A DNA stretch of 64,000 bases from Desulfurococcales archaeon (GTDB taxonomy: Archaea; Thermoproteota; Thermoprotei_A; Sulfolobales; WAQK01), in assembly GCA_027083135.1 (NCBI GenBank), contig JALWQH010000054.1:6648-70647 (forward strand), read 5' to 3'. The notes under the pieces were generated by a model, which saw only the letters and a list, made by a program, of their open reading frames with translations, searched no databases and was not told the DNA's origin. Positions within the stretch are counted from its first letter, which is position 1, and every line of letters starts with the position of its first letter. The translations under genes and the position numbers were made by a program. This document shows positions 3,877 to 61,883 of the stretch, one piece after another.

Positions 3877-3972
3877 TGGAGCCGCCGGCGGGATTCGAAC
3901 CCGCGGCCACCGGCTTACAAGGCCGGCGCTTTCGGCCAGGAATTCTCCTCTACCGGGCTGAGCTACGGCGGC
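3877..3972 (-). tRNA. tRNA-Thr (anticodon UGU) with a ~19-nt intron in the D-arm; CCA encoded
   Basis: Minus strand: GCCGCCG-TA-GCTC-AGCCCGGTA-GAG[GAGAATTCCTGGCCGAAAG]C-G-CCGGC-CTTGTAA-GCCGG-TGGCC-GCGGG-TTCGAAT-CCCGC-CGGCGGC-T-CCA. The cloverleaf closes only if the bracketed insert is removed. Hand-folded. Confidence 0.8.
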
Positions 3973-12017: not shown

Positions 12018-12037
12018 ACTTTTCTCCCAGGGATAAG

Positions 12038-16047: not shown

Positions 16048-16151
16048 TGGTGCGGGGGGTGGGATTTGAACCCACGCAGGCCTACGCCAGCGGATATCTC
16101 CCCTAGAGGGTCTTAAGTCCGCCCCCTTAGTCCTGGCTCGGGCACCCCCGC
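16048..16151 (-). tRNA. tRNA-Leu (anticodon UAA) with a 16-nt canonical intron; CCA encoded
   Basis: Minus strand: GCGGGGG..GCGGA-CTTAAG[ACCCTCTAGGGGAGAT]A-TCCGC, long variable arm TGGCGTAGGCCTGC, GTGGG-TTCAAAT-CCCAC, CCCCCGC-A-CCA. Hand-folded. Confidence 0.85.
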
Positions 16152-16238: not shown

Positions 16239-16378
16239 TGGCGGGCCCGGGGGGATTTGAACCCCCGACCACCGGCATCCCCGGATGCCGGGGCCTTCAG
16301 CGGTTCCTTTAGGAGGCCGGCGCCTAACAGGCTGGGCCTGGCGGCTCCAGCCCTCTGTCCTGGCTGAGCTACGGGCCC
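16239..16378 (-). tRNA. tRNA-Arg (anticodon CCU) with two introns (~30 nt in the D-arm, ~32 nt at 37/38); CCA encoded
   Basis: Minus strand: GGGCCCG-TA-GCTC-AGCCAGGACA-GAG[GGCTGGAGCCGCCAGGCCCAGCCTGTTAGG]C-G-CCGGC-CTCCTA[AAGGAACCGCTGAAGGCCCCGGCATCCGGGGA]T-GCCGG-TGGTC-GGGGG-TTCAAAT-CCCCC-CGGGCCC-G-CCA. 140 nt minus 62 nt leaves 78 nt. Exact splice points are ambiguous by 1 nt. Confidence 0.75.
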
Positions 16379-27231: not shown

Positions 27232-28215
27232 GTGAGAGCCATGCATAGCAGGTGGCTCCTCGAATATGATGATCCTCACGCCATTGTTGAGGAAATACTG
27301 CGGCTGCGTAGGCGTGGGTTAGGCGCCAGAAGGATCGCCAAGCTTGTTTTCGGTAATCGCATCAGCCTCGATGCTGCTACGAAGAGGATTCAGCGTCTTC
27401 TCTCGAGGATCGGGGCGAAATTCTCGCCTCGCCAGTCTGCAGATTTGGACATTTTTGGACAGAAACCCGAGAAGTCTGCCCCACTATCCGAGAAGGTTAC
27501 TAGTAGTGAGCCTAGGCTCGGGCCTACTGAGAGGCTGATCTACGATGCATTGAACATACTCGAGGAAGCCACGCCCTCAATGATCAAGGCTTACCTCGAG
27601 GAGCAGGGGCTCACCAAATCCCTGCGATCCATATACTCTGCTCTCTGGCGCCTCGAGAGACGGGGCATAGCTTGGCGCACCCGTAGGGGCTTCTACGCCC
27701 TGGCTACAGGCCTCTACTACCACGACCTACTGGCTGAGAACGTGCATGTAAGCGAGCTCCCAGTACCCCTGCACAGCAAGAAAGAGAGAGGCCATGCAGC
27801 CATGTTCTCAAGCGTGGTAGCCATGGCTGAGCAGCTGAATGCCACATCCACGGAGCGAATAGAGCTCTGGATGCCAGTCCCCGATAAGCGCCTCAGGGAA
27901 TGGGCTTTGAGGCTCCGCCGCCTGGGATGGCGCCTAGTCAAAATCTACTATAACACGTATGAGAACGCATTGAAGGTTGAGGCAGCATACTATAACCCCG
28001 CCTACCCTCTGCGGACAGCTTATAGGAGCGAGTGGCTTAAACTATACGTTGAGACACTGATGATGGGCTCCCAAGCCATAACAAGCATCCTGAGGAGGCT
28101 TGGAGCAGTGGGACAAAGTGTCCAGGGTACGGGGTGGCGCGGTGTGTCCAAGCTTGGCTCTGGTTCTGGTTCTTCTGCTGTTGGTGGTTGTGTGGGGGGT
28201 GTTGGTTTTGCGTAG
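27232..28215 (+). CDS. multi-HTH protein (candidate replication or regulatory protein of the element)
   Basis: N-terminal HTH LRRRGLGARRIAKLV. Central wHTH TERLIYDALNILEEATPSMIKAYLEE..IYSALWRLERRGIAWR. Gly/Ser/Val-rich tail runs into the G+T-rich tract. Confidence 0.5.
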   Translation: MRAMHSRWLLEYDDPHAIVEEILRLRRRGLGARRIAKLVFGNRISLDAATKRIQRLLSRIGAKFSPRQSADLDIFGQKPEKSAPLSEKVTSSEPRLGPTERLIYDALNILEEATPSMIKAYLEEQGLTKSLRSIYSALWRLERRGIAWRTRRGFYALATGLYYHDLLAENVHVSELPVPLHSKKERGHAAMFSSVVAMAEQLNATSTERIELWMPVPDKRLREWALRLRRLGWRLVKIYYNTYENALKVEAAYYNPAYPLRTAYRSEWLKLYVETLMMGSQAITSILRRLGAVGQSVQGTGWRGVSKLGSGSGSSAVGGCVGGVGFA

Positions 28216-28376
28216 GTATGTGTTGAGTTTTGATGATTATGGTGAGGCTTTGCGTGCTTTGCGTAGGTTGAGGAAGCGTGGTGTTGTGTTGAGGGTTGTG
28301 GTGGTTGTTGTGGATGTTGATCATTGGAATAAGGTTAAGGATTTGGGTAATGGTGGTGGGGGTGGGCGTGCTGTTA

Positions 28377-29207
28377 TTATTGTTTAGTGGTGGTTTTTCT
28401 TGGTGTGGTGTTGGGGTTATTGTATTCTTCTGTTTGTTGTAGGGTTGTTTTTAGGCGGTTGCGGGCGTATTTGCTGTATTGTTTTCTGAGTATTTGGTAG
28501 TATTGGTAGACTGGGTCTGGTAGGTATACCATGTAGTAGTCTCTGAAGAGTTCTGTTCTGTATGTTTTGTCGTTGTAGAGGCTCTCGGTGTTGCGTGCAG
28601 CGGTTGCGGTTGATATTTTTATTCTTCTGCCTCTGTATTCTTTGTGCCCGTATTTCGCCACCTTGATTATTAGTGCGTCTGGGTCTTCTCTTATTCTGGG
28701 TGGGAGTTTCTTCTTGCTGGGCGTGGTCATTAGGAGTATGTTGACGTCTGTGCGGACGACGTCGTACCAGTCTAGTAGGGCTTCGAGGTATGGGCGGCGC
28801 TGCTCGTCGAACCACATGTATGTTGATCCCCATAGTCCTGCGTCATCCCATATTATGATCTCTCTGCCTTCATCTATCTTTGCGAGCAGGTCTGCGGCAG
28901 TGAAGGCTAGGCTGCTGAGGGCTTCGCGGTAAGCGTCGCCGCATTCCAGGCCCTCGTATCTCATGAGGTATGCTGCCAGTGTTTTTATGGCGTATGTGCT
29001 TTTGCCCCCGCCCTTCTTGCCATAGATGATCACGCCTAGAAACTCATCATCGTTGATTGTCTCTCTATAGAAGACGTGGATCGAGTAGCCTGTAGCCCTG
29101 CATCCCAGCTGTGGCTCCTCGTTCAGCTCCTCTATCTTGTCCCAGAGCCCGAGTAGCCTGGCCCTCGTCTCAGCATCCAGGCTGTTGAAGATCTCAAGGC
29201 TGCTCAT
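28377..29207 (-). CDS. P-loop NTPase (candidate genome-packaging or replication ATPase)
   Basis: Walker A IIYGKKGGGKST and Walker B REIIIWDDAG. 276 aa. Confidence 0.7.
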   Translation of the reverse strand: MSSLEIFNSLDAETRARLLGLWDKIEELNEEPQLGCRATGYSIHVFYRETINDDEFLGVIIYGKKGGGKSTYAIKTLAAYLMRYEGLECGDAYREALSSLAFTAADLLAKIDEGREIIIWDDAGLWGSTYMWFDEQRRPYLEALLDWYDVVRTDVNILLMTTPSKKKLPPRIREDPDALIIKVAKYGHKEYRGRRIKISTATAARNTESLYNDKTYRTELFRDYYMVYLPDPVYQYYQILRKQYSKYARNRLKTTLQQTEEYNNPNTTPRKTTTKQ

Positions 29208-29553
29208 CCTCGAGCTCGCCTCCAGTCAGTATCTTCTTGGTTGGCAGCAGGCCTGGGGTCCTGTGGAGCTCGTCGACTATTACCTGTATGTAGTCGTCTA
29301 TTTCGCCGAGGCTCTCTGGGACTGCTCCAAGCCTCCCCCTCACCTTTGAGGGCAGGATGTCGACCAGTGCCTGCAGCGCTGCTCTGAGCTCGGCTAGCTG
29401 GTCTCTGAACACGATTACGCCTATACCCGCCCTCCTCCTCCTAACATCCCTCAAAGCCTCGAGGATCAGGTAGGGGTAGTCGAGGCTCTGCCTGTACCTC
29501 TGCTCCCAGCTCACCGTTAATCCCTCGAGAACTTCTCGCGGTATATCTCCCAC
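29194..29553 (-). CDS. hypothetical protein
   Basis: 119-aa ORF overlapping both neighbours in the minus-strand operon. Confidence 0.4.
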   Translation of the reverse strand: MGDIPREVLEGLTVSWEQRYRQSLDYPYLILEALRDVRRRRAGIGVIVFRDQLAELRAALQALVDILPSKVRGRLGAVPESLGEIDDYIQVIVDELHRTPGLLPTKKILTGGELEDEQP

Positions 29554-29864
29554 GCTTCATCCGCGGCTTCATCGTAGATCTTGGCTATTTCTCTGAGCTC
29601 TCTGCGCTCCCTCGAGGACAGGTTTCTGCGCTTAGCGCTGGCCCTAGCCCTGTTAGCAGCCATCTGCAGCGCCCTGGCCTCTCTCAAAGCCTTGTCACGC
29701 CTCTTGCTCTGCCTTATTGATCTGAGAACCTCTTTTGCTGCTCCCCTGGCCTGATCTGGATCCCTGAATGATATAATGTCTGCAAGGTACTTGTAGCGGG
29801 CTGGGGCGAAGAGCCCCCTCCTCCCGCCCTTACTCCTGCCTCCTGACCTCCTTCTCCTCGGCAT
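29517..29864 (-). CDS. highly basic Arg-rich protein (candidate nucleic-acid-binding protein)
   Basis: MPRRRRSGGRSKGGRRG.. N-terminus and Arg/Lys-rich helices (RARASAKRRNLSSRERRELRE). Confidence 0.45.
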   Translation of the reverse strand: MPRRRRSGGRSKGGRRGLFAPARYKYLADIISFRDPDQARGAAKEVLRSIRQSKRRDKALREARALQMAANRARASAKRRNLSSRERRELREIAKIYDEAADEAWEIYREKFSRD

Positions 29865-30180
29865 GGCTTACACCTCCTCTTGCTCCTAGGAGCTCGGCTA
29901 TGCTTACAAGCACGCCTTTCCCGCTCCTGGCGACAGCATCTGCTATGCAGACTTGAATCGTGGGTGTCAGCTGGAGGTCTCTGCCCAACGTGTAGTCTAT
30001 GGCTGCTACGAGCTCTATCTCGCCTCTGCATGGGAGCTGCTCGACGTAGGGTGCTATCCTGCCCCACTCCCCCACGCTCCTCCTGAGCACGGCTGAAAGC
30101 AGGTCGACGCTCCCAGAGCCCAGCAGCACTCCTCTCTCAAAGTCTCGGCTCGGAGCACTCATACTATCACCGTAATCCAT
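29830..30180 (-). CDS. hypothetical protein (first gene of the minus-strand operon)
   Basis: 116-aa ORF with an ATG start. No motif recognised. Confidence 0.4.
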   Translation of the reverse strand: MDYGDSMSAPSRDFERGVLLGSGSVDLLSAVLRRSVGEWGRIAPYVEQLPCRGEIELVAAIDYTLGRDLQLTPTIQVCIADAVARSGKGVLVSIAELLGARGGVSHAEEKEVRRQE

Positions 30181-30296
30181 GTGGCGGTAATGCTAGATTA
30201 CGGTGAGCCGCGTTTTCATAATTGATTCAACATGGTTATCCATGCTCACATCTAATTGCAATGGCTGCGAGCATCTCTGCAAAGGGGTGATAGTGG
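30181..30296. promoter_or_regulatory. divergent promoter region between the NTPase operon and the envelope-like operon
   Basis: 116-bp spacer between divergently oriented operons, with AT-rich TTTCATAATTGATT. Function inferred from position only. Confidence 0.3.
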
Positions 30297-31160
30297 GTGG
30301 ATAAGCGTGTCTATGCCCTGCTAGCACTAGCGGTACTTGTAGCCCCCCTGCTGAGCCTGGGCATAGCCCATGCAGATGTTGTGAGCGTGAATCCAGGTGA
30401 ATCATACAATGTGACCTTCATGTACGTGAATGTTACGAGCGACGAGCAGGTGACCTTCCAGCTGAGCTATGTTAACGAGGATAATGAGACTGTGCCGTAC
30501 ATGACTCTCAGCGGGACAGAGTTCACATACAACGCCTCTGTGCCCCTGATCCTGACTGTGAGCGTCGACGCCTCCGCCACTGCCCCCGCCAACTTAACCT
30601 TCAACGACATTATTCAGACTGCGAGCTCGACTGGCCAGGCAACTATAACGCCGTCGGATAAGGTGGTGCGCATACCAGTATCAGCGCCTACTGGCAGCAC
30701 GATTAAGGTGAGCGTCAGCCCGAATGGTGATCCCTATGCCCGCGCCATCGGCATAGTCTTAGAGTACAGCGATGGTACGTATAAGCTGATGACTCCTGGC
30801 TCTTACCACGAGGATGCGGCAGCCGCTGATAGCGACTGGCCTGCCAGCGTGACTCCTGATCTCGCTGGCATCTGGGGAAGCAAGACCTACACCTTCACTG
30901 TGGATAAGGATGTGCAGGCCGTGATAATCTACATCAGCACCTATCAGGGACAGTGGGATGTCTCTGTCAGCGTCTCTCAGCCCAGCACTAGTGAGACCAC
31001 TACGACTAGTACTGCCACTGTTCCGCAGCCAAGCGGTTCAAGCAACATATTAGCTGCAGATGTAGACATCATGGGGCATCACACGAATGTTGCCACCATC
31101 GTTGTGCTGCTCATAGTGTTCCTGGGGCTGATATGGCTGCTGGCTGGCCGTAGGCGCTGA
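30297..31160 (+). CDS. secreted glycoprotein-like type I membrane protein
   Basis: GTG start. Signal peptide ..APLLSLGIAHA|D. Several N-x-S/T sequons (NVTF, NVTS, NETV, NASV, NLTF). T/S-rich linker, then C-terminal TM helix plus RRR. Confidence 0.65.
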   Translation: MDKRVYALLALAVLVAPLLSLGIAHADVVSVNPGESYNVTFMYVNVTSDEQVTFQLSYVNEDNETVPYMTLSGTEFTYNASVPLILTVSVDASATAPANLTFNDIIQTASSTGQATITPSDKVVRIPVSAPTGSTIKVSVSPNGDPYARAIGIVLEYSDGTYKLMTPGSYHEDAAAADSDWPASVTPDLAGIWGSKTYTFTVDKDVQAVIIYISTYQGQWDVSVSVSQPSTSETTTTSTATVPQPSGSSNILAADVDIMGHHTNVATIVVLLIVFLGLIWLLAGRRR

Positions 31161-31176
31161 GCCCCCTTGGAGCGGG

Positions 31177-32421
31177 GTGGGGGCAGTGAAGCGCACAGCA
31201 CTCCTGCTACTGCCAGTAATGCTGCTATTCCTAGCGGCTCCAGCAGCCCTAGCTGACACCAGCACCACGACTATTCCATTGGAGTATAGCGGTTATGATC
31301 TTGTGCCAGGCTATGTGTATAGTGTTTCTTTCGAGATGGATTGGACTCGTCTGCCTGGATGGGTATATGCTGATGAGGCGGAGTTTGTTGCTGGACCTAT
31401 GCGCATCGACATCATGCCTGCCGCGACTCTCGGCGGCATGGGCTTCAAGCTGACAGTGTATATTGATGGTGTTAAGAAGTGGAGTAAGACTGATACATGG
31501 GATATTGATTTTGGCGGCAAGGGAACTAAGGAGTATCACTTCACAATCGATATCGATTGTAAGGGGCAGGGTAGGCTGATATACGCTGATGACAATAAGG
31601 TTGTAGCTGGCTTCATACTTCAGGATGCTACTCCCATCTACACTTGGGGCGATGGTCATGCAGACATAGTAACGACCAAGAGCTATGGCTGTAATGGTGG
31701 AGGAGGCTCCACAGCCACCTTGCCTCCTGGGCCTGGCGGGCCTGGTAGAAGCGTTCTCAGCGGTCTTGCCCATGGGTTGAGCACCGCAACCGTCGTCGGC
31801 TTCACGCTGGTGATGCTTGGATTAGCAGGCCTAATCATCCTGATAGCCTTCAAGCAGGCTAAGCGCCACAAGCTTGTGCAGAGCTCTGCACTGGCACTAT
31901 TGCTGCTCGGCAGCATTGTGCTGGGAGTGCTGGTGCTGGGTGCAGCGGCAACTATGAATCACCTCTCAATTCCAGGTGCCCCTACATCCAGGTACACCAC
32001 CACGGTGATCACGACTGATAACACCGTGATAACTACGAGTGTGCCGATCACTCCTCCAGGCAGTACTTCGAGCAGCGGTGGAGGCACAGGTAATCCCACA
32101 ACCACCACTACTACGACTAGTAGCGGTCCTCTAGCCAAGACGACTGTTTACGGCTACATTGACTGCGGTGTAGGCGTCCCCCACCTTATAGCCAAGTACA
32201 ATGTTGCCGAGAAGACCCTCACAGCGGATGTAGAGTATGCCACTGAGCGTCTCAGCACTTCCCTTAGCTCCAGCCTGGTGATGAAGGTCTACGATAGCGA
32301 TGGATCGTTTATCGGTGAGACGCAGATGGAGTGGGATCCCTCTACAAGCACCTATCTCGGCGACCTCGTCCTGCAGATCTGTGGCTACCATGAGCTAACG
32401 GTGGAGGTGTGGCAGGGATGA
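31177..32421 (+). CDS. secreted two-domain membrane protein with central TM hairpin
   Basis: Signal peptide ..LAAPAALA|D. Beta-rich domain, Gly/Pro linker, two TM helices, poly-Thr linker, and a second beta-rich domain. Confidence 0.6.
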   Translation: MGAVKRTALLLLPVMLLFLAAPAALADTSTTTIPLEYSGYDLVPGYVYSVSFEMDWTRLPGWVYADEAEFVAGPMRIDIMPAATLGGMGFKLTVYIDGVKKWSKTDTWDIDFGGKGTKEYHFTIDIDCKGQGRLIYADDNKVVAGFILQDATPIYTWGDGHADIVTTKSYGCNGGGGSTATLPPGPGGPGRSVLSGLAHGLSTATVVGFTLVMLGLAGLIILIAFKQAKRHKLVQSSALALLLLGSIVLGVLVLGAAATMNHLSIPGAPTSRYTTTVITTDNTVITTSVPITPPGSTSSSGGGTGNPTTTTTTTSSGPLAKTTVYGYIDCGVGVPHLIAKYNVAEKTLTADVEYATERLSTSLSSSLVMKVYDSDGSFIGETQMEWDPSTSTYLGDLVLQICGYHELTVEVWQG

Positions 32422-33002
32422 CTCGTAGAGCCATAGTGCCAATACTGGTGCTGGCAATCATTGTAGGAGTATTAGTTGTCGGAGCCGTAGCGGCTCATCA
32501 TGCAGGCTTGATTAATGGAATCGGTGGTGTGGGACTGGCTGCTTCAAGCACCAGTATTGGTTCAAGCGGCTCTACTGGCTCGCAGAGTCAGAGCACGTCT
32601 ACGACTGCTGTGCGTAGGCCTGTTGGGAACGGCTGGGTGGGCGGCTCTGCGTGTGGCTGCGGCGGGCCAGGAGTACCCATGTATGGGTCTGCGTGCATCG
32701 GCTTCAAGTACTCCGCCTACATTGAGCAGGGCAGCAGCGTAGAGGTGGACTTGTGGATCATAAGTGTGAGCGGCTACTCTGGGCCAGGCTCAGTGAAAAT
32801 AATAGAGCACTACCCTGAGGACGGCAAGCTGATCACAGAGAAGAGCATTACAAGTGTTGAGAAAGGCGTAACAACCACCCTCAGCTTCCAGCCTGACAGC
32901 AGCTCGTTGATCAGCGAGTACTACGTGGTGTTGAGCGGTGATTATCCTGCCCCTCACACCTTGGCTAGGGTGAAGATAACCGTGCAGGTGGTGCAGCCAT
33001 GA
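32418..33002 (+). CDS. N-terminally anchored Ser/Thr-rich surface protein
   Basis: I prefer the ATG at 32418 (ATGA overlap with the upstream stop) over the GTG at 32409. TM helix IVPILVLAIIVGVLVVGAV, S/T-rich linker, and a ~90-aa beta domain. Confidence 0.55.
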   Translation: MTRRAIVPILVLAIIVGVLVVGAVAAHHAGLINGIGGVGLAASSTSIGSSGSTGSQSQSTSTTAVRRPVGNGWVGGSACGCGGPGVPMYGSACIGFKYSAYIEQGSSVEVDLWIISVSGYSGPGSVKIIEHYPEDGKLITEKSITSVEKGVTTTLSFQPDSSSLISEYYVVLSGDYPAPHTLARVKITVQVVQP

Positions 33003-34669
33003 GGCGTGGCGGAAACTATCTTCCAATAATAGCCGTCCTTCTGCTGGTGTTGTTCATAGTCGGTATTGCGGCATACACGGTGCACAGGATCAGTGAGAGC
33101 CCACTGCTGCGTCTGCCGCTGGCTGAGGAAGAGAGCGGTAAGATCGAGTTGGCTAGGGGCTCTGTGCAGGCGGGCTACGTCTATTCTTTGACATGGACAC
33201 AGTCGGGATGGGCGTTTGCAGCTAAGCAGAACACGAGGCTCATCGAGAAGCTATCGCTGAGCAGCGTTGATTTGAGCGTTAATGATGTTATAGCGCCGAT
33301 ACTGTGGGACTGGTACTTTGACGGTATGGACGACTATATACTCTTCAGTGGGTTCAGTGTTCCTAACATGACTAGTGCATACGTGGATGCATCTGTGAAT
33401 GCTGAGGTGAAAAATAGCAAAATATTCATATCATATGTGCCAGGCAATGGCCCAAGCATATATTTTGGCATAACTAGTGGCGGGCAGTTCTGGTATGAGG
33501 TGTGGAACTCGACGTCCACTAGTACAACAGAAGGAAGAATATCGGGATGGACCTTTGGGCAGGTAGGCGGCTACCAGCATATCCAAATAGTGCATACGAG
33601 CACAAGCATCGTGGCATATGTGAATGGCGTAGAATACACGTACACACCGCTAGAGGATGGTCCCATACACTGGCTCACAAATATGAAGGTGGGGACACTC
33701 GACACGACATCGGCCTCGACGCTGAAGGGCAGGGTATCACACATATGCATAGCGGATAGAAACAGTCTACCCAACAACTGGCAGGTAATCGAGAACCCAT
33801 ACCTACTGTTATCAGCAACATTCTACAACGGAACCCACTACTTCGACCTTGTAAATGGCGTTGTAGGTGCACCGTACGGCGGTGTAACCAGAGTACCATC
33901 AGAGAACCCATTCCTTTTCCTAGTCAAATCCCTAGCCAGCGACAACAAGCTGCACCTCAAATATTTCCCGCCAGGCACCGTGATCAAGATCATTGACTCT
34001 AATGGAAACGTTATCAGGGAATACACTGTCCCCAGCACGGATGTGAATGCAGCTGGCCTCGTGGAAGACTATGCGGTAGATCTAGGCATGGATATCCTCA
34101 GCGGTGTTAACGTTGAGGCAGTTATACCAGCATCTAAGGCGAGAATCTATGCTCCCCCAGGCTTCACGGTGAAAGTCGACTTATCAAGCTATTCGCAGGA
34201 GTATACTGTCCCCAGCACAGGCTACGTGGATGTCCCTGTAGATGACCAGGCTACAGTGGAACTCCTAGCTTCCGCCAAGCAGGATGACAAGCTAGGCATA
34301 AGCGTGTACAGCGAGGGCAGTGGCCTCAAAGTACAGGTCTATAATTCAAGCAGCGGAGTGGCTATCTCTAATGCTGTTGTGATCGCTAAGAAGAACAATC
34401 TAGCTGCATCCGCCACAACGGATGCCAATGGATTTGCAGAGATAAGCGGCATCACTCCAGACGCACCCATCACAATCGAGGCCTACGCCCTCAACGACGG
34501 CACCATCTATACTGGGAGCACTGTCTACAGCCCGCCTGCACAGCAGAACACGCTGGCAGCCCCAGCGCCTACATCGAGCAGTCATAGAACAGCGATAGCG
34601 CTGCTGCTCATAGTCTTCGCACTGATTGCAGGGATACTGCTAATCAGCAGAGGGGGGCGTAGAAGATGA
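32999..34669 (+). CDS. large surface protein: N-terminal TM, LamG/ConA-like lectin domain, Ig/CarboxypepD_reg-like repeats, C-terminal TM anchor
   Basis: ATGA overlap with the upstream gene. The LamG-like stretch is ..ILFSGFSVPN..KIFISYVPGNGPSIYFGITSGGQFWYEVW..HIQIVHTSTSIVAYVNGVEY..LKGRVSHICIADR. The CarboxypepD_reg-like segment is AISNAVVIAKKNNLAASATTDANGFAEISG. The tail is LLLIVFALIAGILLISRGGRRR. Confidence 0.65.
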   Translation: MRRGGNYLPIIAVLLLVLFIVGIAAYTVHRISESPLLRLPLAEEESGKIELARGSVQAGYVYSLTWTQSGWAFAAKQNTRLIEKLSLSSVDLSVNDVIAPILWDWYFDGMDDYILFSGFSVPNMTSAYVDASVNAEVKNSKIFISYVPGNGPSIYFGITSGGQFWYEVWNSTSTSTTEGRISGWTFGQVGGYQHIQIVHTSTSIVAYVNGVEYTYTPLEDGPIHWLTNMKVGTLDTTSASTLKGRVSHICIADRNSLPNNWQVIENPYLLLSATFYNGTHYFDLVNGVVGAPYGGVTRVPSENPFLFLVKSLASDNKLHLKYFPPGTVIKIIDSNGNVIREYTVPSTDVNAAGLVEDYAVDLGMDILSGVNVEAVIPASKARIYAPPGFTVKVDLSSYSQEYTVPSTGYVDVPVDDQATVELLASAKQDDKLGISVYSEGSGLKVQVYNSSSGVAISNAVVIAKKNNLAASATTDANGFAEISGITPDAPITIEAYALNDGTIYTGSTVYSPPAQQNTLAAPAPTSSSHRTAIALLLIVFALIAGILLISRGGRRR

Positions 34670-35523
34670 AAACCAAACACATTTTTTTCATTCTCTTTAT
34701 TTTTTTGATCATGATTATAACAGCCCCAGCCCTAGCCCAAACAAACGGGTCATCCAACAGCACCACGACCACTCAGAGGCTCTACGGATTCGATGAGGAC
34801 TGGCTTAAGAGCACCGTCGTGGTGGTGTATCAATCGCAGTACGGCACGGGCTGGTGGGTGAATCCATCATACATTGTTACTGCAGCGCATGTTGTGAACT
34901 ATCAGTCTAATGTAGCAGTCACGATTGTGCGTGGCTCGATCAGGCTCTCAGGCACAGTGGTGGCAGCGGATCAGCAGAGAGACGTGGCCGTGATCCAAGT
35001 AGCGAACTCGGATAAGATCGCTAAGCATGTGTTGAGGCTGGCTAGGCAGCTCCCAGACTATGGTGAAACTATTTACACGATAGGGTATCCAAGCGAATTA
35101 CTCCAGATCATGGGGAGCGTAGAGAAGATGAGTGAGAATCCAAGGGTCCTAAGCAGCGCTTTAACCTGGAGGGATCCCTATAGCCACATATTCGAGATAG
35201 GCGGCATAACCGACGCTGGCAATTCAGGCGGGCCTGTATTAGACTCATCTGGCAATGTAATAGGGCTTGTCAGCTTCGCTCTCGAGGGGAAGGCTGGCAC
35301 ACTGTATTTCGCCAGCGATGTTGAGAACATTAAGGCTGTGCTCAGCCAGGCTGGCGTGTCGTATGAGCTCGGCTCGTCTGGGCTGCTGCCAGACATGAAT
35401 AGTAATCCTGCATTGGCTGGGGCTGTGGCTGGAGCAGTCACCAACGTGGTGACTGACACTATTATTATTCTAGTTGGGGTGGGCCTCGGTGCAGCGGTTG
35501 TATCCCGCAAGAAGAGGAGGTAG
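34666..35523 (+). CDS. membrane-tethered secreted trypsin-like (S1/HtrA-type) serine protease
   Basis: Signal peptide ..ITAPALA|Q. Catalytic triad contexts are VTAAHVV (His), RDVAVIQV (Asp) and DAGNSGGPVLD (Ser). C-terminal TM helix plus RKKRR. Confidence 0.75.
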   Translation: MKTKHIFFILFIFLIMIITAPALAQTNGSSNSTTTTQRLYGFDEDWLKSTVVVVYQSQYGTGWWVNPSYIVTAAHVVNYQSNVAVTIVRGSIRLSGTVVAADQQRDVAVIQVANSDKIAKHVLRLARQLPDYGETIYTIGYPSELLQIMGSVEKMSENPRVLSSALTWRDPYSHIFEIGGITDAGNSGGPVLDSSGNVIGLVSFALEGKAGTLYFASDVENIKAVLSQAGVSYELGSSGLLPDMNSNPALAGAVAGAVTNVVTDTIIILVGVGLGAAVVSRKKRR

Positions 35524-35662
35524 GCTGCTGGGCCTCTACCTTATTGTTAGGCCTAAGCATAGGCCTGTAGGCCTGGAGGATTTCATTGAACGTGAGCTAG
35601 ACTCGTTTTTGAGGAGGCATAACTTGCTCATAGTTTCATACGAGGTGGTAAGCATTGATTGA
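35474..35662 (+). CDS. possible small protein bridging the protease gene and the next gene
   Basis: The 3' two thirds (LLGLYLIVRPKHRPVGLEDFIERELDSFLRRHNLLIVSYEVVSID) fill an otherwise non-coding 130-bp gap. The only starts (TTG/GTG) lie inside the protease gene. Weak call. Confidence 0.25.
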   Translation: MGWASVQRLYPARRGGRLLGLYLIVRPKHRPVGLEDFIERELDSFLRRHNLLIVSYEVVSID

Positions 35663-36059
35663 AGCCTTAGCCCTGTTATTCTACCTAGCAATAGCAGTCA
35701 TAACAATCGTCCTGCTCGCCATGCTCAAAGAATTGTTCAGCAGCAATGATTGTAAGGCATGGGAGCAGCGTGTAGGCGAGCTTAAAGACATGTTGGAAAA
35801 GCAGCGGCGGCACTATGAATTATTGTTGAAGGATGCAGCCGTCAAGAACAGCATGATGCGAGGCCTGTGGAACGCTTTCCGCCAGGGGAAGCTCAGAGAC
35901 TGCTATAGCGATGGCGGCGAGATCAGAGTGCTTGCCGACGGCTACGTTATCTGCGAGAAGCAAGAGAAACCTGCAAGGGTTGAAGAGGCTCCCTCAGCAT
36001 TCGTCATAGCTACTCCTCAAGACTTGGAAGAATACGGAGTGGAGGGGGAGGAGCAGTGA
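35655..36059 (+). CDS. N-terminally anchored coiled-coil protein
   Basis: TTG start. TM helix ALALLFYLAIAVITIVLLAML, then a helical region and an acidic tail. Confidence 0.45.
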   Translation: MIEALALLFYLAIAVITIVLLAMLKELFSSNDCKAWEQRVGELKDMLEKQRRHYELLLKDAAVKNSMMRGLWNAFRQGKLRDCYSDGGEIRVLADGYVICEKQEKPARVEEAPSAFVIATPQDLEEYGVEGEEQ

Positions 36060-37303
36060 ATCCCCCGAATGTGAACGAGGAGCTGTTGAAGCAGCTGCTA
36101 CAGTACCTGTGGCAGCGGCATGTTGCTGGCGAGCAGCAGTATCTCTACTGGATATTGGGTGCTCCGCTGCTAGCCCTCTTTATTTTCCTGCTGCTTTGGA
36201 GTAGGCATAGGGCGCATGCCACTACTCTGCTTGACGCATTGTCGTTTTTCTTTGCTCCCAGGGGTCCCGAGAAGATGCTGATTTTCAAGGACTTGGTGGG
36301 GGACAGGGTGCTTGTCTACGATTATAGGACGGTTAAGAGCGGGGACGGCTACCTCGTGCAGGCAGGCCCATACTTGATTAAGACCAATGAGGATCCAGAC
36401 GCCTATGCTGAGCCTCTTTCACTGGTTGATGCCAGGGGGCCGCCAGGAGTTCCCTCGCCCTTCGGCCTCTTCGTCAGACAATTGATCAGCGTCTACATGC
36501 TTGTAGCCCTAGTGGCAATCAGCTTCGTCAATACCTTCTACACTACCTATGATCCCTATATGAAGTATGCTAGGCTCATAGGCCCAGTCACATATACTAC
36601 TGTCGACCTATTGGCATTCGCAGCGCTAGTAATAGTGAGTGCATGGCTAATAGCGATCCTTGTAAGAGCGCTTAGCCCTCAGACACTGGTCGTAGGCTTA
36701 TCGGCTACTGGGATGAGCGGCGAGTATATTGAGGCCAGCCCAGGCCTAGACGTGTATAGCGGTTACCCGCCAGCCAGGCTGCTGCGGGCTATCAGCAGGG
36801 AGCCGAGGATAGAGGTGCCTCAGCCAGTGTTCACATATGTGGATGAGAGGGAGCGTGAGGCTAAGCAGACGTTCTGGGACAAGCTCTACGAGCAGATCAG
36901 CTCGTCGCATCTAACAGCATCGGTCCTAGCACTGCTGGGACAGGTCTACGAGGCGTGGCGCAGATCAGTAGGCCTACTCCTACAAGACCGCTACGACATC
37001 AGCGTGGCCGCCAGAGCACGCTACCAACTCTCTGAAGAGAGGCTTCCTCGAGGATTCCTCAGCAAGTATGCAGGTGTCCTGGCGTTGCTGGCAATCATAG
37101 GCATAATCATACTGGGAGTAGTGTGGCTGCAGCCAAGCCTACATGCACCTACAAATACAACAGCAACAATGATCACTACCACTACAAGCATTCTACCCAG
37201 CCCGCCCACAATGCCGACACCACCAACCAGCCCAGCCACCACCAGCATAACTCCAGCCAAGCCGCCAATACCAGGTAGAACAACCACGCCTAGGGGTGGC
37301 TAG
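36056..37303 (+). CDS. polytopic membrane protein with Thr/Pro-rich C-terminal tail
   Basis: GTGA overlap with the upstream gene. About 4 TM helices. The tail is TNTTATMITTTTSILPSPPTMPTPPTSPATTSITPAKPP. Confidence 0.55.
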   Translation: MNPPNVNEELLKQLLQYLWQRHVAGEQQYLYWILGAPLLALFIFLLLWSRHRAHATTLLDALSFFFAPRGPEKMLIFKDLVGDRVLVYDYRTVKSGDGYLVQAGPYLIKTNEDPDAYAEPLSLVDARGPPGVPSPFGLFVRQLISVYMLVALVAISFVNTFYTTYDPYMKYARLIGPVTYTTVDLLAFAALVIVSAWLIAILVRALSPQTLVVGLSATGMSGEYIEASPGLDVYSGYPPARLLRAISREPRIEVPQPVFTYVDEREREAKQTFWDKLYEQISSSHLTASVLALLGQVYEAWRRSVGLLLQDRYDISVAARARYQLSEERLPRGFLSKYAGVLALLAIIGIIILGVVWLQPSLHAPTNTTATMITTTTSILPSPPTMPTPPTSPATTSITPAKPPIPGRTTTPRGG

Positions 37304-46571: not shown

Positions 46572-46663
46572 GCCGCCGTAGCTCAGCTCGGCAGAGCGCC
46601 GCCCTGGTAGCGGAGCCGCCTGAGAGGCGGAGGTCCCGGGTTCAAACCCCGGCGGCGGCTCCA
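46572..46663 (+). tRNA. tRNA-Thr (anticodon GGU) with a 15-nt canonical intron; CCA encoded
   Basis: GCCGCCG-TA-GCTC-AGCTCGGCA-GAGC-G-CCGCC-CTGGTA[GCGGAGCCGCCTGAG]A-GGCGG-AGGTC-CCGGG-TTCAAAC-CCCGG-CGGCGGC-T-CCA. Confidence 0.85.
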
Positions 46664-50630: not shown

Positions 50631-50729
50631 TGGTGGGCCCGCGGGGACTTGAACCCCGGACCTCCGCCTCTCCTAGAGCTTCTAGGCTCCTGTAAGGGCG
50701 GCGTCCTAACCAGGCTAGACGACGGGCCC
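50631..50729 (-). tRNA. tRNA-Val (anticodon UAC) with a 21-nt canonical intron; CCA encoded
   Basis: Minus strand is identical to tRNA-Val(CAC) except for the anticodon first base and the insert: ..CCGCC-CTTACA[GGAGCCTAGAAGCTCTAGGAG]A-GGCGG... Confidence 0.85.
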
Positions 50730-58092: not shown

Positions 58093-58518
58093 TTGAAGAA
58101 TAGAAGGGCTCTCTCACCACTCATAGCAACAGCCATACTAATATCGGCAGCAGTAGTTGGAGGAATGATGCTATACAACTATTTCAGCACTACTATGGGC
58201 AGCGTGAACAAGGTGAACTCCCTGATATCTGATTTCACAGCGATGAACGTTGGCTCAACCACGGTGCTGCACTACGAGTTCTGGAACACGGGCACGCAGC
58301 CTGCAAACATTACAGGCATAGTCATAGTCGATGATACGGGTAAGGAAACGCATGTCAGCATAACCCCCATACTGATCAGAGGAGGGGAGAAGAGCTCCGG
58401 CAACATAGTCTTATCATCTCCGCTGAGTCCAGGTGAAACATACGCAGTATACGCTGAATACACAGTTAATGGAAAACAGTCAACAACAAGCCCTGTACAG
58501 ATAACTATATCCCCCTAG
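58093..58518 (+). CDS. archaeal type IV pilin-like protein (class III signal peptide)
   Basis: TTG start. MKNRRALSPLIATAILISAAVVGGMML is the Pilin_N/DUF361-type prepilin N-terminus, followed by a beta-rich domain. Confidence 0.7.
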   Translation: MKNRRALSPLIATAILISAAVVGGMMLYNYFSTTMGSVNKVNSLISDFTAMNVGSTTVLHYEFWNTGTQPANITGIVIVDDTGKETHVSITPILIRGGEKSSGNIVLSSPLSPGETYAVYAEYTVNGKQSTTSPVQITISP

Positions 58519-58562: not shown

Positions 58563-61500
58563 ATGACACCTACTACCGGGATCATAAGGATCTGGGAGGA
58601 ACTAGGGCTTAGAAGAATATCATGGGATAGGAAGGATGAGTGGAGCGTGGTTAAAAGCTATAATATAGGCCCCGCCTCCATTCACATAGCTGTCAACATA
58701 GGTAGCGGGGAGTATAGATACTTCATTGATGAGCCCCCTCTATCCGATGATGTTAGAAGGCTCCTGGTAGATGTTCTCTCAGCCATGATTCTCGGGCCAT
58801 TAGAGGAGAGAAGCCCTGAGGAAATGCTTGTTGAGAGGGCTTCAGAGGACCCGCACCTAGAGAGGCTGTTGGAAAAGGAGATGGGTTCAGCAATATATTA
58901 TTTGAGGAGGGCTCTAAGCGGGTATGGACCATTCTACCCGCTACTGCAGGACAGCCTGATAGAGGAGGTAGCGGTTGAGGGGCCAGGCATACCTGTAGCA
59001 GTCTTCCATAGGATAAGGGGGGGCGGGTGGATGGATACAAACCTCACGCTGAACGAGGGGGAACTAGACTCCCTTGTACAGTCTATTGCAAGGAAGATTG
59101 GAAGGCATCTAAGCATAGCTACACCCTTCGCCGAAGGCCTAACCCCAGAGGGTCATAGAGCAGCCCTAACCTTCTCGCGGGAAGTCTCAAGGAGGGGAAG
59201 CAGCATAGTGCTTAGAAAGTATCCTCAAAAACCATTCACCATAATCGACCTGATCAGAGCAAACACTATCTCAGCCCTCGAAGCAGCATATCTCTGGGTA
59301 CTAGTGGAAAACAAGGCATTCATCCTCATAATAGGGGGAATGGCTTCAGGAAAGAGTCTAATAGGTAGTGAACTAGTTCTAGTAAAAATTAATAGAGCAA
59401 GCAGGCTTCTAACAATTGAGCATCTGTGGAACGAGCTAGCTAGAAGAGGCCGCAAAATACAGGAGCTAGGTAACATGGAGTATATTGAGGTCGGCTCTAC
59501 AGATCTTGAGGTATTAACACTGACACCGGAAGCAGTTAGGTGGGTGAAACCCAAATACTTAATCAGGCACAAAGTGAGAGAAAAACTATATAGAATTAAG
59601 ACAAGGACAGGCAGAGAAATACATGTTACCAGAGACCATAGCCTTCTAGTATGGAGTGTCGGAGAAAATGGAGACAAATTCAAGGTAACTGTACGGACAA
59701 TAAGACCATTAGAACTAAAAACAAAACAACACTACCTCCCGTATTTAAGGAAGCTGAGCATCGAAAACAAAAGAACCGCCATTGACGCCTGGCTTGCATC
59801 CCCCGATCTAGGGTATCTGGCAGGCTTCCTGGTAGCTGAGGCACCATGCGGAAGCTATGTCTTCGAGCAAGGTAAGGACGCGATCCTAGAGAAAGTACTG
59901 GGAATACTAGAGAAACACGGGATTCCTCATACCGTGACTCCCTACGATAAAGGAAAACTACACGTAGTACGTGTTATGATTAACCCATCATCTGGAAAAC
60001 TCATTAAAATGCTAGAAGCGGGGAAGTGGGGCTGCGGGAAGAGAATACCAGACGTCTTTTGGAGCATGGATGAGGAGTCTCGTTACGCTTTTCTTGCCGG
60101 TGTTATTGACGGCGATGGTAGAGTTGATGGTGGCAGGTATATTATTAAGATTGCTACGACCAGCAGGGAGCTTGCCTATGGTTTTCTCTACGCATTCGCT
60201 TCTGTAGGTGTTCATGCATACATTCGTGAGAGGAGGATCAAGAAGTATCCGAATAGAGTGTACTACCATGTGCTTATCCCGATCAGTATTAACAGGGATG
60301 GTTTGAGGAGAATTATAAAGCATCTGTCTGATGCCAAGCGTAAGCAAATTGAGGAGGCTATGGAGAAGAGTAGGGGCCATCATTCCGAGACTGATGTTAT
60401 CCCCCCTGATGTAGCATATGCTATCAGCTCCTTGTTAAAGAGAAAAGAGCATGGAAGAAATATAAAAAATGATTGGGATGCAAGGCCTTACAGCTACAAG
60501 GACAAGAATACATCATTCTATAGGATGAAGCAGGGTCTCGGCGGAAAACTCTATGACCTTATACCGAGAGGTGTAGGGTTTGATAGAGTTGAAGAAATAG
60601 GGGAAGTTGAATATGATGGGTACGTATACGATATAGAAGTGCCGGAAACCCAGAATTTCGAGGCTAACGGCATATTCGTCCACAATACATCGATGCTTCA
60701 AGCCATAGCCACCCTGATACCTCCGAATGAAAGGGTGGTTACCCTAGAAGACACTCCTGAACTCAACCTGCCTCATAGACACTGGGATCCCCTGATAACT
60801 AGGTTCAGCTACACAAGGGAGACGTCCCTCAACATAGGATTAGAACAGCTGGCAAAATTCGCGTTGAGACGACGCTCAGAATACCTGATCATAGGGGAGG
60901 TCAGGGGATCAGAGGCGAGAATACTTGCACAAGCCGCTGCCACTGGTCAGGGGTCAATGTGCCTCCCTTACGATGAGCGGATCCTAGTTAGGATCAAAGG
61001 CAGAGCCGCGGCCATGCCTATAGGCATGATGGTAAGAGATATTGTACTAAAAGGAGTTAGGCCTGAGGTGCTTACATATAGTGGTGGGAGATACTCATGG
61101 AAGCCTATTAAGAGGTTCCTTATTGTCCCCGGCCCTAACCGCTGGATCGAGCTTAAACTTACAAGTGGGAGGAGACTCAAAGTAACACCTGACCACCTCA
61201 TACCCGTTGAAGATTCCGGGAAGATAAGGCTTACAAGAGCCTCAAACATAGTTGAAGGAACCCACGTACTATCCGCGGGAAAGCATGATGTAGGCAGAGC
61301 TGTTAAAAATGGGTGGGCTGAGGGAGCCTACAGCATCGACACCGTGTTAAGCATTAATCCAAGCATATCAGCTGAGCCTGCATTCGACATAGAGGTGGAG
61401 GAGAACCACCTCTTCATACATGAATCCCTACTAATAACGCATAACTGCACTTTCCATGCAGATAGCGTTGAGTCAGCTATAGTTAGACTATCATCCCATC

Positions 61501-61883
61501 CAATAGGGCTGGGCGAAGCATTCCTATCACTGATATGGAGCGTCATAACTATGAGAAGGGCGCGTGTGAAGGATAGAGGGATGGCCCGCAGAGCCTCATC
61601 CATAGATGAGGTGACACCGGAGGTTAAAACAAGAAACATATTCTCATGGATGCCCAGCGAGGATAAGCATATCCCCGAGGAGCCCGAAGACGTGGTTAAA
61701 AGGAGTTATAGGCTCAGAATGGTTGCAGGTCTTCTAGGAGTATCTGAGCAAGACGTAGTTGAAGAGCTGGCCCGCAGAAAAGAATTCCTGGAAATACTTG
61801 TCAGGGGAGGGGCTTCAGACTACAGGGATGTGGCGAGAGCCGTAGCAGGATACTATATGAGGGGTGGAGCATGGGGATCCTAG
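58563..61883 (+). CDS. type IV pilus/archaellum-family assembly ATPase (FlaI/TadA/VirB11-like) interrupted by two inteins
   Basis: The exteins total 500 aa. Walker A is IIGGMASGK|[intein 1]|TSMLQAI. Then TLEDTPEL, Walker B YLIIGEVRG, and ATGQGSM|[intein 2]|CTFHADS (the TGH..T.HA box). Confidence 0.85.
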   Translation: MTPTTGIIRIWEELGLRRISWDRKDEWSVVKSYNIGPASIHIAVNIGSGEYRYFIDEPPLSDDVRRLLVDVLSAMILGPLEERSPEEMLVERASEDPHLERLLEKEMGSAIYYLRRALSGYGPFYPLLQDSLIEEVAVEGPGIPVAVFHRIRGGGWMDTNLTLNEGELDSLVQSIARKIGRHLSIATPFAEGLTPEGHRAALTFSREVSRRGSSIVLRKYPQKPFTIIDLIRANTISALEAAYLWVLVENKAFILIIGGMASGKSLIGSELVLVKINRASRLLTIEHLWNELARRGRKIQELGNMEYIEVGSTDLEVLTLTPEAVRWVKPKYLIRHKVREKLYRIKTRTGREIHVTRDHSLLVWSVGENGDKFKVTVRTIRPLELKTKQHYLPYLRKLSIENKRTAIDAWLASPDLGYLAGFLVAEAPCGSYVFEQGKDAILEKVLGILEKHGIPHTVTPYDKGKLHVVRVMINPSSGKLIKMLEAGKWGCGKRIPDVFWSMDEESRYAFLAGVIDGDGRVDGGRYIIKIATTSRELAYGFLYAFASVGVHAYIRERRIKKYPNRVYYHVLIPISINRDGLRRIIKHLSDAKRKQIEEAMEKSRGHHSETDVIPPDVAYAISSLLKRKEHGRNIKNDWDARPYSYKDKNTSFYRMKQGLGGKLYDLIPRGVGFDRVEEIGEVEYDGYVYDIEVPETQNFEANGIFVHNTSMLQAIATLIPPNERVVTLEDTPELNLPHRHWDPLITRFSYTRETSLNIGLEQLAKFALRRRSEYLIIGEVRGSEARILAQAAATGQGSMCLPYDERILVRIKGRAAAMPIGMMVRDIVLKGVRPEVLTYSGGRYSWKPIKRFLIVPGPNRWIELKLTSGRRLKVTPDHLIPVEDSGKIRLTRASNIVEGTHVLSAGKHDVGRAVKNGWAEGAYSIDTVLSINPSISAEPAFDIEVEENHLFIHESLLITHNCTFHADSVESAIVRLSSHPIGLGEAFLSLIWSVITMRRARVKDRGMARRASSIDEVTPEVKTRNIFSWMPSEDKHIPEEPEDVVKRSYRLRMVAGLLGVSEQDVVEELARRKEFLEILVRGGASDYRDVARAVAGYYMRGGAWGS
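59355..60686 (+). mobile_element. intein 1 of the pilus ATPase (444 aa, Ser1, LAGLIDADG endonuclease)
   Basis: Starts SLIGSELVLV directly after the Walker-A Lys. Block B is VTRDHSLLV. LAGLIDADG motifs are LGYLAGFLVAEA and YAFLAGVIDGDG. Ends ..NGIFVHN followed by Thr+1. Confidence 0.8.
60960..61445 (+). mobile_element. intein 2 of the pilus ATPase (162-aa mini-intein, Cys1, Cys+1)
   Basis: Starts CLPYDERILV. Block B is VTPDHLIPV. Ends ..SLLITHN followed by Cys+1 (CTFHA). No endonuclease domain. Confidence 0.8.

Follow-up and report, generated by a model that had tools for sequence, protein, structure and literature searches.

What does an unbroken open reading frame of 1106 codons encode when it reads as a secretion-type ATPase in three places and as something else in the two stretches between them? 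The frame lies on the forward strand of the window (the whole stretch of DNA analysed, 64,000 nucleotides). The original prediction divided it into a 500-aa FlaI/TadA-like ATPase and two in-frame inteins, and its coordinates match those obtained here exactly (Table 1). The gene very probably does hold a real pair of inteins, acquired by a pilus ATPase gene within a pilus operon through two independent class 1 invasions, and both are predicted to splice.

Table 1. Features of the pilus ATPase locus, in positions of the window.
Feature	Position	Strand	Evidence
Pilin-like gene, 141 aa, class III signal peptide MKNRRA/LSPLIATAILI...	58093..58518	+	ORF, NCBIfam
Type IV pilus assembly ATPase precursor, 2 inteins, 1106 aa	58563..61883	+	ORF, Pfam
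N-extein, aa 1-264, ends at Walker A GGMASGK	58563..59354	+	2oap/4ii7 alignment up to the Walker A Lys
Intein 1, predicted class 1, 444 aa, aa 265-708	59355..60686	+	Pfam, NCBIfam, empty sites
LAGLIDADG motif 1 (LAGFLVAEA), aa 419-427, predicted catalytic Glu at intein residue 162	59817..59843	+	Sequence motif
LAGLIDADG motif 2 (LAGVIDGDG), aa 511-519, predicted catalytic Asp at intein residue 254	60093..60119	+	Sequence motif
Middle extein, 91 aa, Walker A Thr to TGQGSM	60687..60959	+	Gap-free against 2oap and 4ii7
Intein 2, predicted class 1 mini-intein, 162 aa, aa 800-961	60960..61445	+	NCBIfam, model, empty sites
C-extein, 145 aa and stop, begins CTFHADSV (second His-box half)	61446..61883	+	Extein alignment
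TadC/FlaJ-type polytopic membrane platform gene, 523 aa	61871..63442	+	T2SSF 2.6e-13 (Pfam)

Profile searches recover both kinds of component from the one frame. Pfam on the entire ORF returns Intein_splicing (2.5e-28), LAGLIDADG_3 (2.8e-12), Hom_end (7e-05) and T2SSE (6e-14), and removal of both inserts in silico leaves exactly 500 aa. Matches of this spliced extein are Archaeoglobus fulgidus GspE (2oap, 7e-78; the alignment spans residues 60-493), FlaI (4ii7, 2e-56) and CpaF (2e-32). It has Walker A (GGMASGKT) and the His box (TGQGSMCTFHA), and its middle extein supplies the Asp box (LEDTPEL), Walker B (YLIIGEVRG) and the first half of the His box (TGQGSM). With all four motifs present, in an architecture of an N-terminal domain plus a RecA-like part, it falls among the T2SSE (PF00437)/COG0630 ATPases, and on sequence grounds the host protein is classified as a FlaI/GspE/TadA-type ATPase. 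In this clade Gln (TGQ) stands where the canonical His box has its first His, and intein-free members have it too. The Logan contig L081 carries an identical gene and matches the window with 100% identity over 10,130 bp of DNA.

The neighbouring genes point to a pilus rather than an archaellum. The pilin-like gene upstream matches the NCBIfam models for UpsA (3.4e-10) and for the archaellin/type IV pilin N-terminal domain (9e-04), both under cut-off, and the platform gene downstream, whose first 13 nt overlap the end of the ATPase gene, matches UpsF (2e-38), also under cut-off. The same arrangement recurs in the syntenic loci L082 and L083, where a pilin-like gene precedes the ATPase and the T2SSF platform gene is a conserved neighbour. 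Pilin, ATPase and TadC-like platform would together form a minimal archaeal type IV pilus operon. Several better-known identities were rejected. The archaellum motor FlaI/ArlI model (NCBIfam NF058587) gives 284.8 bits against a cut-off of 550, and an archaellum operon, with archaellins and FlaF/G/H/J, does not fit neighbours consisting of only one pilin-like gene and a TadC-like gene. BasE membership is ruled out on curated NCBIfam cut-offs, and the Ups system of Sulfolobales is approached without being reached (UpsA 40 bits versus 130, UpsF 132 bits versus 400), so that the locus is Ups-like but a non-member. The host is an uncultured, probably hyperthermophilic archaeon related to Desulfurococcales, a placement that comes only from synteny and from the 57-66% identity of Top6A, Top6B and DHS. 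The description of the host as a hyperthermophile is plausible: the relatives are Thermoprotei and Desulfurococcales assemblies, and a temperature of about 84 °C is predicted from an IVYWREL fraction of 0.448.

Intein 1 begins with SLIGSE and ends with FVHN, followed by TSMLQ. The claim that it interrupts Walker A is right as to position, between Lys and Thr, but the string is GGMASGK/T (the slash marks the insertion point) and not GASGK/T. Its Ser1 (Ser265 of the ORF), HN end, Thr+1 and two LAGLIDADG motifs are all as originally described. Analysed alone, it matches Pfam Intein_splicing (5e-20), LAGLIDADG_3 (2e-13) and Hom_end (2e-05), and its PDB sequence matches include the PI-PkoII, CDC21 and VMA inteins. 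The splice residues comprise Ser1, T92-x-x-H95 in block B, Y425-D426 in block F, H443-N444 and Thr+1. Ser1 and Thr+1 occur in all 14 of the site-1 inteins found, and T92, H95, D426, H443, N444 and Thr+1 are invariant in 13 alleles. With nucleophiles and blocks B, F and G in place, intein 1 has the residue complement of a class 1 intein and is predicted to splice. The structural model is of moderate quality (pLDDT 65.8, with residues 342-410 under 50); in Foldseek it retrieves TliVMA, PI-PfuI and PI-SceI at 1e-20 to 1e-10, and its endonuclease core, expected to be alpha-beta-beta-alpha-beta-beta-alpha in this family, resembles I-DmoI and I-Tsp061I (TMt 0.62-0.65). The two-motif LAGLIDADG homing endonuclease looks intact, and both putative catalytic acidic residues are present; the Glu of motif 1 is kept in six of seven endonuclease-bearing alleles, as is the Asp of motif 2.

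Intein 2 begins with CLPYDE and ends with ITHN, and CTFHA follows, so that the insertion point reads TGQGSM/CTFHA. As predicted, it is a mini-intein with Cys1, a terminal HN and Cys+1 that splits a conserved box. Its splice residues are Cys1, T76-P-D-H79 in block B, D143 in block F, H161-N162 and Cys+1. The catalytic block residues are invariant across the inteins at this site, all 18 of which have Cys1 with Cys or Ser at +1. The Pfam Intein_splicing score is 35.0 bits, 0.8 under the gathering score of 35.8. The AlphaFold model (pLDDT 92.6) aligns in Foldseek with the solved archaeal TFIIB, Pho RadA, CDC21-1 and PolII mini-inteins at TM 0.80-0.85, and according to this model intein 2 is a HINT fold lacking an endonuclease domain. 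PDB matches to PPR proteins were set aside as sums of scores for 17-residue repeats, with no single significant stretch among them.

Two checks proposed alongside the original prediction, comparison with intein profiles and alignment of the exteins with intein-free orthologues, both bear it out. Scored alone against the curated NCBIfam cut-offs (intein_Nterm, TIGR01445, 24.5 bits; intein_Cterm, TIGR01443, 15.6 bits), intein 1 reaches 41.3 and 32.1 bits and intein 2 reaches 37.5 and 26.9 bits, so all four pass. The spliced extein aligns without gaps over both junctions with the solved archaeal ATPases 2oap and 4ii7: at site 1, GGMASGK+TSMLQAIATLIPP faces GETASGKTTTLNAIMMFIPP, and at site 2, TGQGSM+CTFHADSV faces TGHASYSTLHAGDI and TGHSVMATFHAANI. 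Exact empty sites exist at both positions, so the junctions are precise. Site 1 is empty in P0002-5, intein-free alleles read GGMASGK/TSMLQAL across the junction, and site 2 is empty in P0006, P0013, P0031 and about 100 further homologues. These data leave little room for the reading that the inserts are lineage-specific domains staying in the mature protein. The bare existence of in-frame insertions is all that speaks for it. The P-loop would not survive 444 residues placed between the Lys and Thr of Walker A. Both inserts resemble inteins in profile models and in fold, their bounds are exactly those of inteins (Ser or Cys at position 1, HN and then Thr or Cys), and orthologues lack them with nothing else altered. 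Retention as ordinary domains is effectively refuted.

The two inteins appear instead to have entered the ATPase gene as independent class 1 elements. Among syntenic orthologues some have both inteins, some one and some neither: P0001 (locus L082) has both, and P0002 (locus L083) has intein 2 only and reads GGMASGKTSMLQAL at site 1. Intein 1 shows signs of horizontal transfer. The window's exteins are 76% (N), 91% (middle) and 79% (C) identical to those of P0001, its closest orthologue, despite which the site-1 intein of P0001 is a 163-aa mini-intein only about 32% identical to intein 1. Across all 444 aa, intein 1 shares 50-53% of its residues with the inteins of P0139, P0130 and P0141, the exteins of which are 31-39% identical to those of the window in the N- and C-terminal parts and 38-63% in the short middle part. 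The GC content of intein 1 is 44.0%, versus 50.4% for the extein, and just 3% of windows of equal length are as low. A scan of a genome collection yielded 80 named loci, in every one of which the ATPase is uninterrupted and at most 51% identical; its ranking prefers unbroken matches, for which reason it missed intein-bearing relatives and is unusable as a measure of intein frequency.

Splicing and endonuclease activity are predicted. Intein 1 would leave the precursor through an N-O acyl shift at Ser1, transesterification to Thr+1 and cyclisation of Asn444, and intein 2 through Cys1, Cys+1 and Asn162. The putative LAGLIDADG endonuclease could copy intein 1 into empty alleles; the low GC of intein 1, and a conservation that exceeds that of the N- and C-exteins around it, lend indirect support to the predicted cleavage of the intein-less allele. 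Since each intein splits a catalytic motif, Walker A in one case and the His box in the other, both excisions would be needed to produce the active 500-aa ATPase, and pilus assembly would depend on two splicing events. The Ser1/Thr+1 pair had been put forward as a useful candidate for splicing chemistry or protein engineering, but to see special chemistry in it would be an overstatement: class 1 inteins use Cys1 or Ser1 together with Cys, Ser or Thr at +1, and both residues are standard class 1 nucleophiles (PMC4031507).

Conceivably at least one intein is splicing-incompetent; the allele would then be non-functional, and either another ATPase would build the pilus or no pilus would form. Inteins do decay, as P0145 illustrates in having lost both LAGLIDADG acidic residues, and in P0006 the Walker A Lys is replaced by Ile; an archaeon usually has several paralogues from this ATPase family (PMC4858521). 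In the window, on the other hand, no residue is missing from the splice sites or from blocks B, F and G, these residues agree with invariant columns, the 3.3-kb ORF is unbroken and coupled to the gene after it, and the exteins, 76-91% identical to P0001, keep every ATPase motif. A disabled allele is therefore highly unlikely.

A further possibility would refine the preferred explanation of two spliceable inteins without replacing it, namely that the inteins are kept as conditional switches that gate pilus assembly post-translationally. Such a switch could lie in a disulfide that joins Cys1 to Cys+1 of intein 2, or in a need of the Ser1 intein for a certain temperature. Both inteins sit inside catalytic motifs, Cys1 and Cys+1 are kept together in 16 of 18 site-2 inteins, and conditional splicing has reportedly been seen in other archaeal P-loop inteins such as Pho RadA. 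Against this, occupancy is sporadic among close orthologues, as fits selfish elements, and Cys+1 needs no regulatory explanation because it is also native to intein-free members of the clade. Regulation by splicing is thus unlikely here. A broader version would have the pilus ATPases of uncultured Thermoprotei form an undescribed intein hotspot, in which the Ser1 intein and the Cys1/Cys+1 intein act as a two-key switch, temperature and redox, on pilus assembly. This is an unlikely proposal; if true, the pairing of the inteins would be more than that of two selfish passengers. In this ATPase family inteins occupy four sites or more, and a single gene can hold as many as three of them; a 56-genome survey lists no multi-intein genes in the phylum (PMC10643990).

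Taken on its own, the locus is an ordinary example of a known phenomenon: P-loop inteins are common, nothing here is new in kind, and a two-intein ATPase gene leaves current understanding unchanged. Its practical value is modest. The appropriate annotation for the gene is pilus ATPase, intein-containing, with 500 mature residues. For protein engineering it offers a naturally thermostable and presumably orthogonal pair, Ser1/Thr+1 and Cys1/Cys+1, and intein 1 is a candidate for a new LAGLIDADG specificity. Because several sites are occupied, mini- and full-length inteins share one site and close orthologues differ in occupancy, the family could be used, beyond the haloarchaeal MCM model, as a natural setting in which to follow the homing cycle and the way neighbouring inteins interfere with one another.

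Whether inteins in this ATPase family are catalogued, a question left with the original prediction, can be answered in the affirmative (PMC4760082; PMC2807308). The survey of Novikova et al. (2016), which spans Crenarchaeota, Euryarchaeota and other archaea and stresses P-loop insertion in ATPases, counts 21 inteins among the archaeal COG0630 'VirB11' ATPases (PMC4760082). Those inteins share the host protein family and the domain of life with the inteins of the window, a match by family only, as the main text of that survey gives neither insertion sites nor sequences (PMC4760082).

The KlbA inteins, the textbook example of class 2 (PMC2807308), come close to intein 2. That of Methanocaldococcus jannaschii (MJ0781, PDB 2jmz) has a homologous secretion-type ATPase as host, and a KlbA-like C-extein is 26% identical to that of the window (E 3e-10). 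The KlbA intein, too, is small, close in size to intein 2 and with Cys+1, and it lies in the same loop, between TGH and T-x-HA. KlbA, however, has Ala1 and direct attack by Cys+1, whereas intein 2 and all 18 of its site-mates have Cys1. The insertion point is TGHDG/CSGTLHA in KlbA, a string composed from the 2jmz N-extein and the P0128/P0129 C-exteins, and TGQGSM/CTFHA in the window, an offset of one residue when anchored on TGH and of two on T-x-HA. The two inteins are 17% identical, and 2jmz ranks 40th in Foldseek. Intein 2 was considered as a Cys1 allele of the KlbA intein, and this was rejected because the register differs and no special similarity in sequence or fold is present.

For intein 1 the nearest known systems are the Thermococcus/Pyrococcus VMA (7qss, 7qst), Pho RadA and MCM-a/CDC21-1 inteins, which likewise lie in the P-loop directly after the Walker A Lys, at GK/T, GK/S or GK/C (see PMC10643990 for the MCM-a and VMA-b position). 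These endonuclease-bearing archaeal inteins share with intein 1 a LAGLIDADG domain nested in the HINT domain and are its best matches in fold and sequence. They differ in host protein and in having Cys1, where intein 1, like each of its 13 site-mates, has Ser1; identity of intein 1 to solved inteins is only 12-19%. Also close are unpublished alleles of the ATPase family with two or three inteins in public assemblies (P0139, P0131, P0143, P0145 and P0001). Other family alleles carry inteins at two further sites or an endonuclease inside the site-2 intein. P0139 (1107 aa) is known from five near-identical copies, of which NCBI assemblies supply four. Its intein 1 is 53% identical to that of the window and its exteins only 36-63%, and its inteins are arranged as in the window: a Ser1 intein with an endonuclease in the P-loop, then a Cys1 mini-intein at site 2.

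The window encodes a FlaI/GspE-type type IV pilus ATPase as a single precursor, of which 500 of 1106 aa remain once two in-frame inteins are taken out. String searches place the ORF, both inteins and their motifs exactly where the original prediction had put them; its sole slip was the P-loop string, which reads GGMASGK/T and not GASGK/T (slash, insertion point), the position itself being correct. A Logan contig (run SRR13853571) carries the same 1106-aa gene and is 100% identical to the window over 10,130 bp.

The ATPase precursor, its inteins and other features of the window (aa numbering is that of the ORF)
Feature	Position	Strand	Description
ATPase precursor ORF	58563-61883	+	1106 codons, uninterrupted
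Walker A GGMASGK	last residue at aa 264	+	string search
Intein 1	aa 265-708; nt 59355-60686	+	444 aa; starts SLIGSE, ends FVHN, then TSMLQ
LAGLIDADG motif 1, LAGFLVAEA	aa 419-427	+	string search
LAGLIDADG motif 2, LAGVIDGDG	aa 511-519	+	string search
Intein 2	aa 800-961; nt 60960-61445	+	162 aa; starts CLPYDE, ends ITHN, then CTFHA
His box variant TGQ (of TGQGS)	60945-60953		first His replaced by Gln
RadA gene	9531-12113	-	509-aa intein at ~10146-11672, with LAGLIDADG domain, in P-loop
ThrRS-like protein	12581-14113	+	510 aa; archaea-specific ThrRS editing domain, anticodon-binding domain
tRNA match	3880-3972	-	
tRNA match	16051-16151	-	
tRNA match	16242-16378	-	
tRNA match	46572-46660	+	
tRNA match	50631-50729	-	
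ORF run, same strand	27232-37303	+	327, 287, 414, 197, 556 and 415 aa
HtrA/MarP-like serine protease	34666-35523		surrounded by the ORF run
Lowest-GC stretch	477-1769 and surroundings	-	36.6% over 1332 bases from 751 (mean 51%)

Intein-free relatives bear out the proposed junctions. The protein spliced in silico aligns without gaps across both junctions to Archaeoglobus fulgidus GspE (2oap, 7e-78) and Sulfolobus acidocaldarius FlaI (4ii7, 2e-56), and the 120 best extein homologues are mostly 470-550 aa long with both sites closed. Among the informative homologues, P0001 has inteins at both sites. P0002-P0005 have the site-2 intein only, their site 1 reading GGMASGKTSMLQAL, as do P0082 and P0098 (site 2 only). 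Seven others (P0006, P0013, P0031, P0045, P0058, P0060 and P0078) carry only the site-1 intein and read TGQGS(A/L/M)C(T/S)FHA at site 2. P0001 and P0002 are true orthologues of the window ATPase; their contigs share the order methyltransferase, pilin, ATPase, TadC and HisRS, with DHS and TopoVI upstream. In P0006 (683 aa, on a 3-kb metagenome contig) the Walker A Lys directly before the site-1 intein is replaced by Ile (GPMASGI/S...); either this allele is dead or the sequence contains an error. In the 692-aa fragment P0130 the site-1 intein opens Ser-Cys (MATGK/SCTGDTKVL); here the extein register makes Ser the first residue, followed by an unusual Cys at position 2.

Profile models also identify both inserts as inteins, each exceeding the curated cut-offs of the NCBIfam N-terminal (TIGR01445) and C-terminal (TIGR01443) splicing-region models. 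Pfam matches to the whole ORF comprise Intein_splicing (2.5e-28), LAGLIDADG_3 (2.8e-12), Hom_end and T2SSE. Intein 1 by itself matches Intein_splicing (5e-20), LAGLIDADG_3 (2e-13) and Hom_end (2e-05), and intein 2 matches Intein_splicing at 1.6e-08 and 35.0 bits, slightly below the gathering score of 35.8. The nearest solved structures to intein 1 by sequence are PI-PkoII and the CDC21, VMA and RadA inteins. Its structural model is only moderate (pLDDT 65.8, residues 342-410 poorly defined); the top Foldseek matches are endonuclease-bearing inteins (TliVMA, 1.7e-20; PI-PfuI, PhoVMA, PI-PkoII and PI-SceI), and I-DmoI and I-Tsp061I, LAGLIDADG enzymes that are free-standing, match its core. Intein 2 is weakly similar in sequence to the RadA, DnaX, CDC21 and PolII mini-inteins. 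Its AlphaFold model (pLDDT 92.6), built on seven inteins from the same site, reaches TM scores of 0.80-0.85 when superposed on the mini-inteins of TFIIB, Pho RadA, CDC21-1 and PolII.

All 14 site-1 inteins found have Ser1 and Thr+1. At site 2, Cys1 occurs in 18/18, followed by Cys+1 in 16 and Ser+1 in two. The invariant columns (S1, T92, D94, H95, Y425, D426, H443 and N444 at site 1; C1, D78, H79, D143, H161 and N162 at site 2) correspond to the class 1 intein residues of blocks A, B, F and G. The Ser1/Thr+1 pair is thus normal chemistry, since class 1 nucleophiles are "Cys1 or Ser1" and "Cys+1, Ser+1, or Thr+1" (PMC4031507), and it is a fixed trait of the site-1 lineage. Because intein 1 parts the P-loop Lys from its Thr and intein 2 breaks up the His box, the unspliced ATPase should be inactive.

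The spliced extein has Walker A, Asp box, Walker B and His box. The Gln variant of the His box is shared by P0001-P0007, P0013, P0015, P0024 and P0031 and by intein-free clade members; more distant homologues have TGH. Archaellum FlaI was rejected as an identity (285 bits against an equivalog cut-off of 550), as was bindosome BasE, also below its equivalog cut-off. Upstream lies a 141-aa, weakly UpsA-like protein with a class III signal peptide. The next gene downstream shares 13 nt with the end of the ATPase gene and encodes a weakly UpsF-like, 523-aa membrane protein of the T2SSF/TadC type. The locus represents a minimal type IV pilus module of archaea rather than an archaellum; Desulfurococcales and Thermoproteales have many such modules, of diverse types (PMC4858521).

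Several observations together bear on the mobility of intein 1. Over its full length it shares 50-53% identity with the P0139, P0130 and P0141 inteins, although the N- and C-exteins of these hosts are only 31-39% identical to the window's (short middle extein, 38-63%). P0001, the nearest orthologue, has exteins 76%, 91% and 79% identical, and its site 1 holds a 163-aa mini-intein only ~32% identical to intein 1. GC and GC3 are 44.0% and 43.5% in intein 1 against 50.4% and 51.2% in the exteins, and only 3% of equal-length windows are equally low in GC. Across seven endonuclease-bearing site-1 alleles, the endonuclease and N-terminal splicing regions are each 43% conserved, and six keep both catalytic acidic residues. 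Taken together, these findings suggest that intein 1 arrived fairly recently by homing and that its predicted endonuclease is probably still active. The window also holds a RadA intein (GPFGSGK/CVSKDT...IIMHN/TQL; Cys1/Thr+1), positioned identically to the known Pho RadA intein; unlike intein 1, it does not deviate in GC from its extein (52.5%).

The flanking TopoVI and DHS are 57-66% identical to genes beside the corresponding locus in Thermogladius, Acidilobus/Acidilobaceae, Thermodiscus, Pyrodictiaceae and Desulfurococcales assemblies. A hyperthermophilic host, as originally proposed, is plausible but not proven: 14 window proteins have an IVYWREL fraction of 0.448, for which the Zeldovich relation gives ~84 °C, and two tRNAs have 68-73% GC in a window of 51%. 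Five tRNA matches, 89-137 nt long or without a clean ARAGORN anticodon call, are probably intron-containing archaeal tRNA genes. The ThrRS-like protein, in which a domain scan found no catalytic-core match, appears to be the editing part of a split threonyl-tRNA synthetase, an arrangement known in Crenarchaeota. The ORF run has no NCBIfam matches, nor Pfam matches in the three ORFs scanned. The lowest-GC stretch may be of foreign origin; it overlaps the gene for a right-handed beta-helix/NosD-like protein.

Inteins are already known in this ATPase family. A survey counted 21 in archaeal COG0630 "VirB11" ATPases and five in CpaF, and stressed P-loop insertion in many ATPases (Novikova et al., 2016; PMC4760082). 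The host of the KlbA inteins, the class 2 prototype, is homologous to the window's ATPase. The KlbA N-extein in PDB 2jmz ends TGHDG, and KlbA-like C-exteins open CSGTLHAN and CLGTIHAN, their Cys+1 aligning two residues upstream of the window's; intein 2 therefore sits in the KlbA loop but at a different point. It has Cys1 whereas KlbA has Ala1, and the two show no special similarity (17% identity, Foldseek rank 40). Two-intein genes are common in Euryarchaeota, with none among 56 crenarchaeal genomes surveyed (PMC10643990). An exhaustive intein 2 profile search nevertheless returned many multi-intein relatives from public assemblies. P0139 (1107 aa, four copies in NCBI assemblies) has the window's two-intein layout, P0131 (1377 aa) has endonuclease-sized inserts in both inteins, and P0143 and P0135 have three inteins each. 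Two more sites lie near RVV/T-EDTPE in the Asp box and at AA/SGHG just before site 2; these sites were noticed in P0135, P0137, P0141 and P0143. The two-intein pilus ATPase is real and was rightly interpreted, and it is a further case of a well-described phenomenon in a known intein host family. Its minor value lies in providing two thermostable, presumably orthogonal inteins and in its place within a multi-site intein family of uncultured Thermoprotei.
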